This document shows positions 18,001 through 24,000 of a stretch of 64,000 nt of DNA, one piece after another. Origin of the DNA: an uncultured Gammaproteobacteria bacterium (GTDB taxonomy: Bacteria > Pseudomonadota > Gammaproteobacteria > GCA-002705445 > GCA-002716945); NCBI GenBank assembly GCA_902521725.1, contig CABYTF010000004.1, forward strand, positions 19,049-83,048, in the 5' to 3' direction. Made by a program: the position numbers. Position 1 is the first letter of the stretch. The number at the start of each line of letters is the position of its first letter.

Positions 18001-21000
18001 GATAGAGGAACTCAAAATTATTATCTGCTTCATCTATAGTTTTCACAACAGTCTCGGCAAGTTCTTTGGCGCCAGCTCCTCCATCTGCCCAATGGGTGGA
18101 GGATACTATAGGTACGTTAAGTTGCTCAGATTTAGCTTTTAGTAGATCCTTCTCCTTATCTGTATCAAAACTGAAACCATTAATTCCTACAACAACTGGT
18201 AATCCATAATGATTTTTTAAATTATTAACATGGCGCTCTAAATTAGTTAAACCTTTTGATAAGAAATCAGTGTTCTCCTTATTCAAATCCTCTAGAGAGC
18301 ATCCACCGTGATATTTCAATGCTCTTATAGTTGCAACAAGCACAACAACAGATGGCTTAAGGTCAGCTTTCCTGCATTTAATATCAAGAAACTTCTCAGC
18401 TCCAAGATCAGCGCCAAACCCAGCCTCAGTAACAACATAGTCAGCTAACTTTAATGAAGCTTTTGTAGCTATAACTGAGTTACATCCGTGAGCAATATTA
18501 GCAAAAGGACCTCCATGAATCATGGCAGGATTATTTTCTAGAGTCTGAACAAGATTAGGTTTCATAGCATCTTTGAGTAGCACAGTCATAGCACCATGCG
18601 CATTAATATCTTTCGCAAGAATAGGTTTACGTTCACGCGTATATGCAATGACAATTTTTCCTAATCTTTCCTTTAAATCAGTAATTGATGTAGCTAAGCA
18701 GAATATTGCCATAATTTCAGATGCAACAACAATGTCAAACCCGTCTTGCCTAGGATAACCATTACCTACTGATCCAAGCGAGCACACTGTGCTTCTCAAT
18801 GCCCTATCATTCATATCAAGGACCCTCTTCCAAGAAACTCTTCTGACATCAATTTCTAACTTGTTTCCATGATGAATATGATTGTCTAACATAGCAGCTA
18901 GAAGGTTATTAGCTAATTGAATAGCGTTAAAATCGCCTGTGAAATGCAGATTTATGTCCTCCATAGGTATAACTTGTGACATGCCACCTCCAGCTGCACC
19001 ACCTTTCATGCCAAAGACAGGTCCAAGCGAAGGTTCTCGAATTGTCACCAGAGCTTTTTTTCCAATATGATTTAGTGCATCACCCAGACCGACAGAGGTT
19101 GTTGTTTTTCCCTCACCAGCAGGTGTCGGGCTAATCGCAGTAACTAAAATCAATTTACCATCTGGGTTGGAGTTTATTGAATTCAGATAATCAAGCGATA
19201 TTTTAGCTTTAAAGTGACCAAATGGTTCAAGTGAATCAACTGGAATGTTTAATTTAGCCGCTATATCTGATATTTTTTCAAGTTTCGCAGCCTGAGCTAT
19301 TTCTATATCTGATTTCATAATTTACCCTCTAATCTTGTGTCTAATAAATATAATGTTTATTGGTATAAACATCAATAGTTATCAATTTTTCATATTCCCG
19401 AATAACGTTTCTTCAACACATTCACAAATTATATGTCCTGCTATAGCATGAATTTCTTGGATGCGCGTAGTTTTATCAGAATTTACAGATAAAACAACAT
19501 CAGAATAATTGGCTAGATCTTTTTTGTTCGATCCAGTAAATGAAATAATATATTTTACTCTCTTTCTAGCTTCCTTAACTAGTTTTAATATATTCGGCGA
19601 CTTACCAGATGTACTATATACAATTAAGCTGTCGTTTTCATTAGCCAAAGCATGCGCTTGTCTGGAAAATATATGTTCATAACCATAATCGTTCGCTATG
19701 CATGTCAAGTTTGAAGTATTTGCAGTTAAGGCAATTGCTGGTAAAGGGTCGCGGTCAAAATTAAGCCTTCCCATAAACTCAGCAGCAATATGCTGGGAAT
19801 CTGCAGCGCTCCCTCCGTTTCCAGCTAGAAGCACTTTTCCTTTTTTTTGGAAAGTTTCTACTAAAAAGTTTGAGGCTGATTCTAAAGCATCTGAGAATTC
19901 TGTATTTATTATAGAATCAGAATTTGCTCTCTTAGAACCTTGAAGGCTATTATGTATTATATCTTTGAGATTCATCTTAGAATTTTGTTTTATCAGTCAA
20001 TTCACATTGTCCTTGTTTCATTGATTCGCTGAGAAATGTCGCATTACCAGTCACCCTATTTATAGATAATTCGGAATTGAGCCGAGTAGCTACTATATAT
20101 ACCTCATTGAAATTAACAGAAAAGCTTGATTCTTCAAGCTTTTTAACAATTTTAAAAGTATTTTTTTGTTCATTGAATACATACGTTTCCTGATTGTCAT
20201 CAAATTTGCAGACTATATATGTATTACCCAGTATCATTGGGCTTTCTTCTTTTTTTACGATTTTTATATCATCCATTTTATCAACCATTATATCCTGTTT
20301 ATCCTCAGGTATGTCATCAATAAATATTTCTTTTGTAGTGTCTCTTGTCACGCAGTATTCAAAAGGAATTGTAAGTAAGCCAGAATCAAACAGATGAAGG
20401 CTTACATCGTTGTTGTTTATCATAAAAAAATGATTTCTATATCCTATATAATAGTCTCCTCTCTGCTCATTTATAGATAAGCACACTCTAAAACCAGAAT
20501 AAGTATCTCCTAAATGATCGATACTTGATTTGGCTGGTTCGTTGATAAACTCAACCTTGGCGGTTTTATAGTCTTTTAAATTATTTATCAAATACTCTTT
20601 CAGGACTTTTTGATAATTTTCTGGAGGTATTCCGTAACTTACATTTAGAGTATTGCTAGTTTGACTTGGTGATATCATCGATGGTGCTGGCAACTTGCCA
20701 CAACTTGATATAGCAAATGTAAGAATCAAAAATCTAAAAGTATTCATGTGCCCAGGGCCGGAGTCGAACCGGCACGAGATTGCTCTCGAGGGATTTTAAG
20801 TCCCTTGCGTCTACCAATTCCGCCACCCGGGCCAGTAAAAAACAAACATATTGAGAGAGTGAATATAGGTGCGGCATGTACATTGAAATATTTTATACTA
20901 AAATCCTTTTTTGTCTAATATAACTAATAAGGTTTTAAAACAAATCTCTATTTCTAACCAGATTGACCAATTTTTTATGTAGTATAAATCATACATAAGT

Positions 21001-24000
21001 TTCTGTTCTGCATCTTTCTCATCAAATCCGTATGGATAAATAATTTGTGCCCAACCTGTAATTCCAGGTTTAACAATGTGTCTTAAGCCATAATGTGTGA
21101 TATTTTCGATGTACTTGTCGGATAATTTAAACCACTCTGCCCTAGGTCCAACTAAATGCATATTACCAATGAGTATATTGAATATTTGTGGAAATTCATC
21201 TATTCGATATTTACGCAGACCTTTCGCAAAAGAATATATCCTAGTATCGTTTACTTCCGTATTACCCTCTGATTCTGAGCCGGTATACATTGTTCTAAAT
21301 TTATATAATGTAAAAAGATTATTATTTATACCATACCTTTTTTGTCTATAGAAAAGCGGCTCTTTTATATTTAGAAAAAGTTTTACTATAAATATATATA
21401 AAGTGAATATAATCAAAAAAGGAGATATTATTAAAATTGCAAAATAGTCAAATATCCTTTTTATAAAGTATGGTGATTTACTAAAAGTTTTAATATTAAA
21501 TGATTTATACTCTGGCGATATAAAAAGCTTTCTTAAATATCGTTCCATAAACTCCTCTAAATCCATATAATCAAGTTTGTATAGACTAGGCTGTGTCTTT
21601 CCTAATTTAGCTAGTTCAATTTTTGATAAATTTACTGTGATAATAGAATTTCTCTGCATTTGTAATTGGTCTGATACTTTCGTAAAATTCTGATACGAAT
21701 CATGGAAATAAACAAAAAAACCTTTTTCGCGTAACATTTTTATCTCATAGTCATTGAACTTATAAAACTCACCTATTATGTGTATAGGAATATTATTTAA
21801 ATCTTTAAAATTTGCTCTGATTAGATATCTGATGAACAATATCACTAAAGGTATTGATGCCCATATCATTGTAATAACTAAATTAGTGCTTAATTGATAA
21901 TAAAGATAACCGATTAATTGAAAGAAGACTGCAATAACAGATGTTTTAACTGAAATTCTAATCTTATCACAAAAGTTAGATGCAAAATAATTACTATAAT
22001 AGTTTCTAATAAAAGATACGAAAACTACAGTCATTCCGTATAGTAAAAACATAAAGATAAGATTATTCGTAGAATCTAAATCTGTAAAAAAGAATATGTA
22101 TACATATCCAAATAATAATGGAGTTAGGACATCTGTTAGTACTAAAGATAAAGTTATCATAAATTCATATAAGATTATCTTTATAGTGCTAACAATGCAA
22201 TGGAGGCTAAGGTCGGAATCGAACCGGCGTTGACGGCTTTGCAGGCCGCTGCATTACCACTCTGCCACTTAGCCAAATATGAGCGGGAAACGGGGCTCAA
22301 ACCCGCGACCTCAACCTTGGCAAGGTTGCGCTCTATCAACTGAGCTATTCCCGCAATCAAAACTATCCCAGTATATCATCCCAAGCGTTTCTTACATAAT
22401 AAATGAATGATAAAACAGTGAGAATGGCGGCAATGAGTAATAGCAATATACCGAAAATATGCAAATTCATATATGCAAAGTCTATATTGGAGTGGAGCAA
22501 AAATACTAACGCCGACATTTGAAACCCTGTCTTGATTTTTCCAAGGTTATTAACTTTGAGAGATACGTTAGCTTTCAGTTCAGCCAATCTCTGCCTAATT
22601 GCAATCACAAGAAACTCTCTAGAAATGATAATTAAAGATGACAATATGAAAATTATTGAATCAAGTGATCTAGCAAGTAAGAAAATTGTTATAACAACTA
22701 AAAGTTTGTCGGCTATAGGATCAAGAAATGCTCCAAATGCCGTGGTTTGATTATAGTTTCTTGCAACATAACCATCAAAATAATCAGTTATTAGTGCTAT
22801 CAAAAAAATATAAGCTGAGATGTCTCTGTATTTTCCATCGCTCATTACAAAGAAAAGTACGATTAGAGGAATAAAGGCTATTCTTGAAATAGTAAGCATC
22901 GTAGCAAAGTTTAACTTCATTTGTGAATACTCGTATATATATTGGTTGCTAACTTCTCGCTTATCCCGCTAACTTGTTTTAAATCCCTTATCGATGCTTT
23001 TAAAACTCCTTGTATCCCTCCAAAATGATTGATAATTATTTTTTTTCTCTCATCACCTATACCTGGTATTCCATCAAGTTTCGAATTAAACATAAGTTTG
23101 TTATGTCTTTTTCGCTGATTTAGTATCGCAAATCGATGAGCTTCATCTCTTATAGATTGTATTAACGTGAGTGCATCTTGATTAATATTATTAGTGATAT
23201 CTTTATTCATATTATTAAGTATTTTGTCATTTTTACTCAAACGATTAAGACCTTTATGGATGCCTAAAATGAAAATATTTTTACACTTAAGTGCATCAAC
23301 TACTTTCTTCGCTTGTGTTATCTGCCCCTTGCCTCCATCAACAATAATTAATACTTGAGATGATTCAAAATTATGAATTTTCAATAATCTACGTTTGATA
23401 ATTTCTTTCAAAGCAGCGTAATCGTCTGATTTTTTTGTATTTACAATATTATATTTTCTATAGTTCTTTTTATCGAAACCGCATTCATCATAATAAATTG
23501 CAGATCCAACAGCGGAGCTCCCACTTATATGACTCACATCAAAGCATAATATAATATTTACATCTATTTTAAGTTGAGTATTCAAGTTTTGAAGAAGGTT
23601 CCGATCTTTTTTGATTGTTTTTAGAGATCTATTAAATAAATTGGTATGACATAAATTCATAAATTCAGAGTACTTCTTGTCTACCCTGTTCAAAATTTTC
23701 GAATTTTGCTGATATTTTTTATTTATAACCGATTCAATATTATCTTTATCAAGAATCTTATCCTTAGAAATTATTAGATTTGGAGGAACGTGCGTTAGAT
23801 AATATTGCTTAAAAAAAGAAGTCAGGGTCTCATTAATATTCTCATGATGTGTTTTTGAAAATATATAATTTTTACAACCCATATTTACACCATTTCTTAT
23901 GATATTTATATCTACAAGTAGCTTTGAATCATTTTCATAACCTAAGATGAAATCTATGCTTTGATTTTCAGGAAAAATTGAATAATGACTCGTTATATCT

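Follow-up and report, generated by a model that had tools for sequence, protein, structure and literature searches.

The window analysed here is a 64,000-nt stretch of DNA from an uncultured gammaproteobacterium (contig CABYTF010000004.1), in which the gene for a predicted phosphoglycosyl transferase (PGT) lies between two tRNA genes. tRNAs were called with ARAGORN and Rfam, and protein domains with Pfam and NCBIfam. The gene order on the minus strand is uvrC, pgsA, tRNA-Gly(GCC), tRNA-Cys(GCA), PGT, tRNA-Leu(UAA), a lipoprotein gene, gmhA and fhs (Table 1). The three tRNAs score 57-65 bits, compared with an Rfam gathering score of 29, and an Rfam search of positions 19000-25000 at a permissive threshold returned tRNAs only. 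The genes are tightly packed: uvrC and pgsA overlap by 4 nt, the pgsA stop codon is 8 nt from tRNA-Gly, the two following spacers are 6 nt (tRNA-Gly to tRNA-Cys) and 40 nt (tRNA-Cys to the PGT start codon), the PGT stop codon is 65 nt from tRNA-Leu, and gmhA, which is collinear in nearly all loci compared below, starts 1 nt past the lipoprotein stop codon. PGT is the sole minus-strand open reading frame (ORF) of at least 50 residues between tRNA-Cys and tRNA-Leu, an interval referred to below as the slot. The slot measures 1,368 nt, its 420-codon ORF included, and the contiguity of an E. coli-type tRNA operon is lost. The window surroundings consist of housekeeping genes (dnaK, dnaJ, dapB, fab genes, tmk and holB), with no polysaccharide cluster around PGT. 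The layout is not an assembly artefact, since long-read assemblies, dozens of short-read contigs and one single-cell genome all show it.

In E. coli, uvrC-pgsA is directly followed by these three tRNAs (glyW-cysT-leuZ), unchanged in anticodon, order and strand, with tRNA spacers of 54 and 12 nt, a distance of 151 nt between pgsA and the tRNAs, and yecA after them. An earlier note on this DNA had described uvrC-pgsA-Gly-Cys-Leu as a conserved arrangement, which E. coli indeed displays; the gene identities, order, same-strand layout and abutment of tRNA-Leu and the lipoprotein gene given in that note were all recovered with ARAGORN, Rfam, Pfam and NCBIfam. In contrast to E. coli, the window has a 1.26-kb gene between tRNA-Cys and tRNA-Leu and a much shorter distance from pgsA to tRNA-Gly, no CCA is encoded in its tRNA-Leu, and a protein gene begins 2 nt past tRNA-Leu. 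The tRNA-Gly body, which also lacks an encoded CCA in the window, shows no variation across six lineages, and tRNA-Cys and tRNA-Leu are likewise identical across them.

Table 1. Features of the locus, with positions in the window
Feature	Position	Strand	Remarks
uvrC	22917..24695	-	592-residue ORF; conserved left flank; GIY-YIG and UvrC domains in the identical gene of locus L001
pgsA (CDP-diacylglycerol--glycerol-3-phosphate 3-phosphatidyltransferase)	22363..22920	-	PF01066, 112 bits; TIGR00560, 140 bits (cut-off 109)
P1	22370..22378	-	extended -10-like element TGATATACT within the final codons of pgsA; predicted to drive tRNA-Gly and tRNA-Cys
tRNA-Gly(GCC)	22281..22354	-	ARAGORN; Rfam RF00005, 65.5 bits
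tRNA-Cys(GCA)	22201..22274	-	ARAGORN; Rfam, 64.3 bits; left boundary of the slot
tRNA-Cys to PGT spacer	22161..22200	-	about 40 nt; weak -10-like GATAAT at 22174-22179 (P2)
PGT	20898..22160	-	420 residues; Bac_transf; predicted polyprenyl-phosphate glycosylphosphotransferase
P3	20890..20917	-	TAGACA-N16-TAAAAT, straddling the PGT stop codon; 10/12 consensus matches; predicted promoter of tRNA-Leu, lipoprotein gene and gmhA
tRNA-Leu(UAA)	20749..20832	-	ARAGORN; Rfam, 57.2 bits; right boundary of the slot
tRNA-Leu/lipoprotein junction	20745..20749	-	discriminator A at 20749, one base at 20748, lipoprotein ATG from 20747
Lipoprotein gene	19977..20747	-	256-residue ORF; signal peptide and lipobox Cys16
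gmhA-like phosphoheptose isomerase	19382..19975	-	SIS_2, 91 bits; TIGR00441, 177 bits (below the cut-off of 209)
fhs (formate-tetrahydrofolate ligase)	17645..19318	-	557-residue ORF; PF01268 in the identical gene of L001; right flank
rmlB (dTDP-glucose 4,6-dehydratase)	16616..17611	-	TIGR01181, 386 bits (cut-off 365); strain-variable

The PGT protein matches PF02397 (Bac_transf) with 178.3 bits (cut-off 27), residues 234-415 spanning positions 1-178 of the 179 in the profile. TIGR03025 aligns over its full length (residues 23-419) with 233 bits, under a cut-off of about 295, and the scores with TIGR03023 (WcaJ) and TIGR03022 (WbaP) are 196 bits (cut-off 411) and 150 bits (cut-off 403). None of the NCBIfam models hit, WbaP, WcaJ and EPS_sugtrans among them, reaches its curated cut-off. 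The protein also aligns with PglC (8e37, 1e-28) and WbaP (8t53, 9e-23), its Asp-Glu dyad, within IDEFPQ, corresponding to LDELPQ of PglC. Among 19 homologues, the catalytic dyad and 56 further columns are invariant; D321, E322, P324, Q325, G338, P339 and R340 are all conserved without exception in this set. Judged by its domain, dyad and G-P-R motif, the protein is predicted to be a member of the monotopic PGT superfamily. It shares with WbaP, WcaJ and PglC the Bac_transf catalytic domain, the Asp-Glu dyad, the re-entrant helix region and a TIGR03025-like full length, and differs from them in its sub-cut-off NCBIfam scores and in its placement among housekeeping genes, outside polysaccharide clusters. 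Its architecture is therefore best described as WbaP/WcaJ-like; the scores do not demonstrably make it a WbaP or WcaJ and do not assign a sugar specificity. From its family, it would be expected to transfer a sugar-1-phosphate onto undecaprenyl phosphate, starting an O-antigen, capsule or glycoprotein glycan.

Homologues of PGT number in the thousands, and the best 120 are full-length, 44-100% identical to the window protein, and from marine metagenomes. Seven loci, L001-L007, come from tracing six homologues (45-100% identical) to their contigs, and include one single-cell genome, one long-read contig of 1.04 Mb and one contig of 152 kb. All seven have PGT in the slot, with pgsA on the upstream side and the lipoprotein gene and gmhA on the downstream side. 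A scan of metagenomes that took the lipoprotein family as its seed gave 80 further loci. A PGT-family gene occupies the slot in 32 of the 36 loci whose contig spans tRNA-Cys to tRNA-Leu, and the arrangement was seen in more than 40 independent contigs, the flanks being still collinear where the identity of PGT orthologues falls to 43-45%. The GC content of PGT is 26.7% against a window mean of 32.9% (z=-1.67), and that of its third codon positions (GC3) 22.6% (z=-1.0), calculated over the 54 ORFs of the window; other core genes of the window are AT-rich to an equal or greater degree. The earlier note had treated PGT as a noteworthy insertion event and had proposed checks of synteny and composition. 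The first, with the gene in the same slot in nearly all of the spanning loci of relatives, speaks against that view, and the second found an unexceptional gene, within the range of the window.

tRNA genes are classic sites of island integration. This and the lowish GC content of PGT are what would be expected of a recent integrase-mediated islet, or of a prophage remnant, aimed at the 3' end of tRNA-Cys. Such an origin is nevertheless extremely improbable. The slot contains PGT as its single ORF and no integrase ORF; there is no direct repeat of the tRNA 3' end, the sole tRNA-related repeat being a T-arm similarity between tRNA-Cys and tRNA-Leu; a search for relatives of PGT in viral contigs found none; and the GC3 value and the presence of orthologues in the same slot down to 43-45% identity point the same way. 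Recent horizontal gene transfer or an integrase island was consequently rejected on composition, repeats and the lack of viral relatives. The breadth of the contigs, the divergence of the orthologues, the unremarkable composition and the lack of an integrase or att repeat together argue that PGT is ancestral in the clade. Thus, the arrangement appears to be old and common to a clade of AT-rich, small-genome marine Gammaproteobacteria, rather than a recent insertion. An affiliation with SAR86 may be conjectured.

Relative to other Gammaproteobacteria, occupancy of the slot seems to be a derived state. The comparison draws on a pgsA search of genome contigs, in which the matches listed were mostly from Alphaproteobacteria and also included L008, L009, L011, Motiliproteus and an Alteromonadaceae metagenome-assembled genome (MAG). 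The three tRNAs are contiguous in E. coli and, among the matches listed, in Motiliproteus and the Alteromonadaceae MAG, and tRNA-Cys adjoins tRNA-Leu in L011, a gammaproteobacterial MAG also among those matches. Within the clade, pairwise identities suggest that PGT is evolving faster than its flanks. The divergence of PGT and that of its flanks are correlated with a Spearman rho of 0.36-0.55, compared with 0.56 between the two flanks. Exchange of PGT independently of its flanks was considered and set aside, as these correlations reveal no clear incongruence; it is left as a minor possibility.

The slot is a very small flexible site, polymorphic among close relatives. Across the loci it spans 107 to about 4,560 nt and contains 0-5 genes. 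PGT is missing in four loci, with gaps of 107 nt (L107 and L108), 145 nt (L113) and 175 nt (L148). All four still have the 3'-terminal ~25 nt of PGT plus the spacer behind it, and L148 additionally retains the first ~27 nt, in which the ATG is mutated to ATA. These remnants of the PGT ends indicate three independent deletions rather than empty ancestral sites. In L110, L149 and L138 the slot has divergent PGT alleles, with 34-41% identity in the aligned part and 29% over the full length; the allele of L138 (117-1374) is divided into two ORFs of 175 and 236 residues and is either a frameshift pseudogene or the result of an assembly error. Further slot genes, whose names rest on reading their sequences alone, are SDR-like, dehydroquinate-synthase-like and sugar-kinase-like ORFs in L138 and L112, a ManC-like gene alongside PGT in L145 and L143, and a UDP-GlcNAc 2-epimerase-like gene with a GT4-like gene in L152. 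L096 has a PglD-like acetyltransferase and a small membrane ORF. Some slot variants have a conserved small membrane ORF of 108-116 residues (MFEDLFNYSKERQ...), placed after the cassette and before tRNA-Leu (L096, 262-594; L100, 300-650; L110, 1417-1743; L154, 726-1058).

Three pairs of loci have right flanks that are at least 90% identical and yet differ in slot contents (L005/L096, L113/L112 and L165/L152). In the latter two pairs homology begins exactly at the 5' edge of tRNA-Leu, and in L005/L096 the common sequence reaches ~130 nt upstream of tRNA-Leu. The sister lineages L008 and L009, both among the matches listed, have pgsA genes that are 48-54% identical. In L009 a PglD-like gene lies between tRNA-Cys and tRNA-Leu, and tRNA-Leu is followed by the lipoprotein gene, fhs and a gene with a Wzy_C domain (O-antigen ligase family). 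In L008 both intervals are occupied, the Gly-Cys interval by a GT4 glycosyltransferase gene and the Cys-Leu interval by a PglD-like gene, and past tRNA-Leu there are a DegT aminotransferase gene and a 2-epimerase gene. The variety of cassettes and the contents of the sister lineages indicate that sugar genes entered the intervals of this tRNA cluster repeatedly. The sugar gene inside a tRNA operon that the earlier note reported is real; the note was silent on the polymorphism of the slot and on the other sugar genes in sister lineages.

A second variable spot lies directly past gmhA (L003, 8802-12864; L006, 8905-9777). It contains a methyltransferase gene in L003 and in L006/L007, and in L003 also an aminotransferase gene, a radical-SAM/SPASM gene and an APH-like gene. 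Many of the metagenome contigs (L088-L167) stop exactly at tRNA-Leu or tRNA-Cys, and many contigs with PGT measure no more than 1.3-1.6 kb. Short-read assembly breaks off at the invariant tRNAs, which leaves the locus fragmented in many datasets.

No terminator-like hairpin was found between pgsA and the lipoprotein gene (22363 to 20747), the tRNA-Cys/PGT spacer included, and read-through is therefore possible. Three conserved promoter-like elements, P1 to P3, are distributed over the same interval. P1, with the pattern TGATATA[ACT]T, ends 11-20 nt ahead of tRNA-Gly in every lineage of the clade and in L009; Motiliproteus instead has a canonical TTGACA-N17-TATAAT in its spacer. P2, TGnTAHHTT, starts 15-18 nt ahead of the PGT start codon in relatives and is present in 10 of 21 non-redundant spacers, compared with 0.8+/-0.9 in shuffled sequences. 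The window and the L002 lineage have GATAAT/TATAAT in place of this motif, a few nucleotides further upstream. The position of P2 predicts a transcript start at the AUG or 1 nt before it. A 15-nt inverted repeat (22143-22157 and 22169-22183; 87% complementary, arms 11 nt apart) surrounds the PGT start codon in the window, and might occlude it or be a chance feature of AT-rich DNA.

Of the 62 sequences that extend far enough upstream, 47 have P3, at 53-67 nt ahead of tRNA-Leu, and it is kept in all four PGT-deleted loci (L107, L108, L113 and L148). Its -10 half is non-coding and conserved, and the remainder of the spacer has diverged. That every deletion of PGT spared P3 is the best available evidence for its function. 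Some of the loci without P3 have another conserved leader with TGnTATATT. In this alternative leader, found in L005 (about 7255-7385), L004, L099, L096, L112 and L111 and thus common to loci with different upstream genes, TGnTATATT is followed by two GTGTTAC repeats and then AACACTC, to which GAGTGTT is complementary, abutting the 5' end of the tRNA. In RNA folding of the segment from P3 to the lipoprotein start, the tRNA alone folds (z=0.38). The three elements would partition the array, which argues against an obligatory single transcript of a tRNA operon.

The junction of tRNA-Leu and the lipoprotein gene is strongly conserved: of 89 loci, 86 have GGGCA-N-ATG, and it shows no variation across six lineages with lipoproteins only 43-86% identical to that of the window. 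Translation of the lipoprotein must begin at this ATG, since the signal peptide and lipobox cysteine follow directly. The lipoprotein mRNA would then either start at the processed 3' side of tRNA-Leu, with a 1-nt leader, or be translated with the folded tRNA upstream. A Shine-Dalgarno-like motif lies within 18 nt of the start in only ~16 of the 54 window ORFs, and many adjacent genes overlap by 1-8 nt; with such motifs rare, initiation without one seems to be the norm in this genome. The lipoprotein family is narrow and clade-specific, with 211 homologues among 5.8 billion proteins, and has five invariant cysteines. It has no Pfam or NCBIfam match. An AlphaFold2 model, built with an alignment of database homologues (pLDDT 73), has two beta-rich domains; a Foldseek search found no fold relative in the PDB at E<0.01.

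In animal mitochondria, leaderless mRNAs arise by an established system of tRNA punctuation. We tentatively suggest, as a possibility on the doubtful side, that a comparable system operates in this free-living bacterium. Endonucleolytic processing at the 3' end of tRNA-Leu would make the near-leaderless 5' end of the lipoprotein-gmhA mRNA, the PGT mRNA would be near-leaderless by virtue of a -10 element 8-18 nt before its start, and the tRNA cluster would serve both as a set of processing signals and as recombination anchors for envelope-glycan genes. As in mitochondria, the start codon lies essentially at the 3' boundary of the tRNA, whose excision would make the mRNA 5' end; in contrast to mitochondria, the case concerns a free-living bacterium and one such junction in the window, and is drawn from sequence alone. 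In the literature searched, neither bacterial tRNA-punctuated leaderless mRNAs nor this arrangement of a sugar gene and a tRNA cluster were found to be described. If the junction functions in this way, it would be a bacterial counterpart of the tRNA-punctuated leaderless expression of mitochondria.

Taken as a whole, the locus is probably best explained by an old clade-wide arrangement with a flexible slot and a partition by three promoters. An ancestral uvrC-pgsA-tRNA-Gly-tRNA-Cys-tRNA-Leu cluster has become interleaved with cell-envelope sugar genes, and the Cys-Leu interval normally contains a lone intact PGT of the WbaP/WcaJ type. Close relatives have lost this gene, have a divergent allele or other sugar genes in its place, or have nucleotide-sugar genes beside it. 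The array would probably not be expressed as one obligatory tRNA-operon transcript, and would be split by the three promoters, P1 driving tRNA-Gly and tRNA-Cys, the -10-like P2 at 8-18 nt ahead of the PGT start giving a nearly leaderless PGT mRNA, and P3 driving tRNA-Leu, the lipoprotein gene and gmhA. As there are no terminators, read-through from upstream would probably add transcripts that are cut by RNase P and 3' processing, as in the secG-leuU and tufB operons.

Several observations weigh against this explanation, mainly against its promoters. A promoter scan of the window gave 35 sites, compared with 34.7 expected in shuffles, as consensus matches are common in a genome of 33% GC; promoter-like hexamers are thus as frequent as in shuffles, and only conservation patterns carry weight. 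P1 overlaps conserved codons (W-D-D-I), so that coding and promoter constraints are inseparable, which weakens the case for P1. The -35 half of P3 also overlaps conserved codons, and the conservation of this half and of P1 may reflect coding alone. About a quarter of the loci are without P3, some having a different upstream leader. The P2 motif was defined post hoc and is weak in the window's own lineage. On the side of its history, the window's own clade is not among the matches listed in the pgsA search of genome contigs.

The earlier note had proposed that PGT is co-transcribed with the tRNAs and has to be freed by RNase processing on both sides. In its strict form, PGT would have no promoter of its own and would be expressed only from a single long RNA that begins at pgsA or tRNA-Gly and extends to tRNA-Leu, its mRNA would be released by RNase P and 3' processing at either side, and priming of the glycan would be tied to growth-rate control. 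The common strand, the spacers of 8, 6, 40 and 65 nt and the lack of terminator-like hairpins are all compatible with such a transcript, as are the mRNA-tRNA co-transcripts of E. coli (PMC2190699), and the window's own tRNA-Cys-PGT spacer contains only a weak -10-like hexamer. We regard both the single long transcript and the coupling to growth rate as unlikely, however. A -10-like element is found at a fixed distance ahead of the PGT start in many lineages, the -35/-10 pair ahead of tRNA-Leu was retained despite deletion of PGT, and tRNA-Leu has kept a promoter-like leader in loci with other cassettes. Moreover, the contents of the slot vary freely, which argues against a finely tuned coupling. 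Promoter-like elements before tRNA-Gly, PGT and tRNA-Leu stand against this part of the note, and the lack of terminator-like hairpins makes additional read-through likely.

A further alternative, which would supplement the three-promoter, flexible-slot explanation, concerns how the slot changes. The invariant tRNA-Cys and tRNA-Leu may act as homology arms through which glycan cassettes are swapped between diverged lineages by homologous recombination, and the polymorphism of the slot would then be allele replacement under phage pressure rather than a series of independent deletions and insertions. Lineages that share only 45-70% protein identity have tRNAs that are 100% identical, slot contents differ despite flanks that are at least 90% identical, and the onset of homology at the 5' edge of tRNA-Leu in L113/L112 and L165/L152 is what such exchange would leave. 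The identities of pgsA and the lipoprotein to those of the window are also discordant (85% and 61% in L108; 73% and 86% in L002), and replacement glycan islands with conserved flanks occur in Alteromonas and Pelagibacterales (PMC4898812, PMC11898729). Conversely, the divergence of PGT follows that of its flanks about as closely as one flank follows the other, and most of the history of PGT therefore looks vertical. At 70-85 bp, the arms are on the short side for recombination to proceed efficiently, the stretch shared by L005 and L096 runs ~130 nt upstream of the tRNA, and no donor-recipient pair, with near-identical cassettes and diverged flanks, was found among the loci compared. On this balance, cassette exchange through the tRNAs is conceivable but on the unlikely side.

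The locus is a variation on two themes already known, mRNA-tRNA operons and flexible glycan islands linked to tRNAs, and not the singular insertion or regulatory coupling that had been proposed. The thrU-tyrU-glyT-thrT-tufB operon is an mRNA-tRNA operon in E. coli. tRNA genes of E. coli are often found within mRNA operons, and secG-leuU gives a hybrid mRNA-tRNA precursor (PMC2190699). As in secG-leuU and tufB, protein and tRNA genes share one strand with no intervening terminator, and RNase P and 3' processing would separate them. In contrast to these operons, which have their tRNA or tRNAs at one end of the mRNA, the window has a protein gene with tRNAs on either side of it and, separated from the last tRNA by a spacer of 1 nt, a second protein gene; co-transcription is a prediction here. 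Replacement flexible islands for O-chain or glycotype genes with conserved flanks have been described in Alteromonas and Pelagibacterales (PMC4898812, PMC11898729). The slot resembles them in having, at one position with conserved flanks, different non-homologous sets of sugar genes in close relatives. It differs in its size, 0-5 genes and 0.1-4.6 kb compared with multi-gene clusters, in mostly containing only the initiating transferase, and in having tRNA genes of a single cluster as its two borders.

The arrangement illustrates that streamlining can merge operons, a housekeeping tRNA cluster having fused with envelope-glycan genes in an abundant marine lineage. Signs of this merging are a promoter-like element that encloses the PGT stop codon and a tRNA that lies 2 nt away from a start codon. 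At 0.1-4.6 kb, the compact and well-bounded slot could mark strain-level glycotype diversity, and hence phage susceptibility, in metagenomes.

Outside the tRNA cluster, a second strain-variable sugar gene, rmlB, lies ~3 kb from PGT, between fhs and an ABC-transporter operon. It is present there in the window and in L001, is absent at that position in L002, L004 and L005, and has no rmlA, rmlC or rmlD adjoining it. The ARAGORN and Rfam scan found no rRNA within the 64-kb window. The only other structured RNA detected by Rfam in the window is a standard one-piece tmRNA at 41648-41994 on the plus strand (193.5 bits), which encodes the tag AENKPLALAA.

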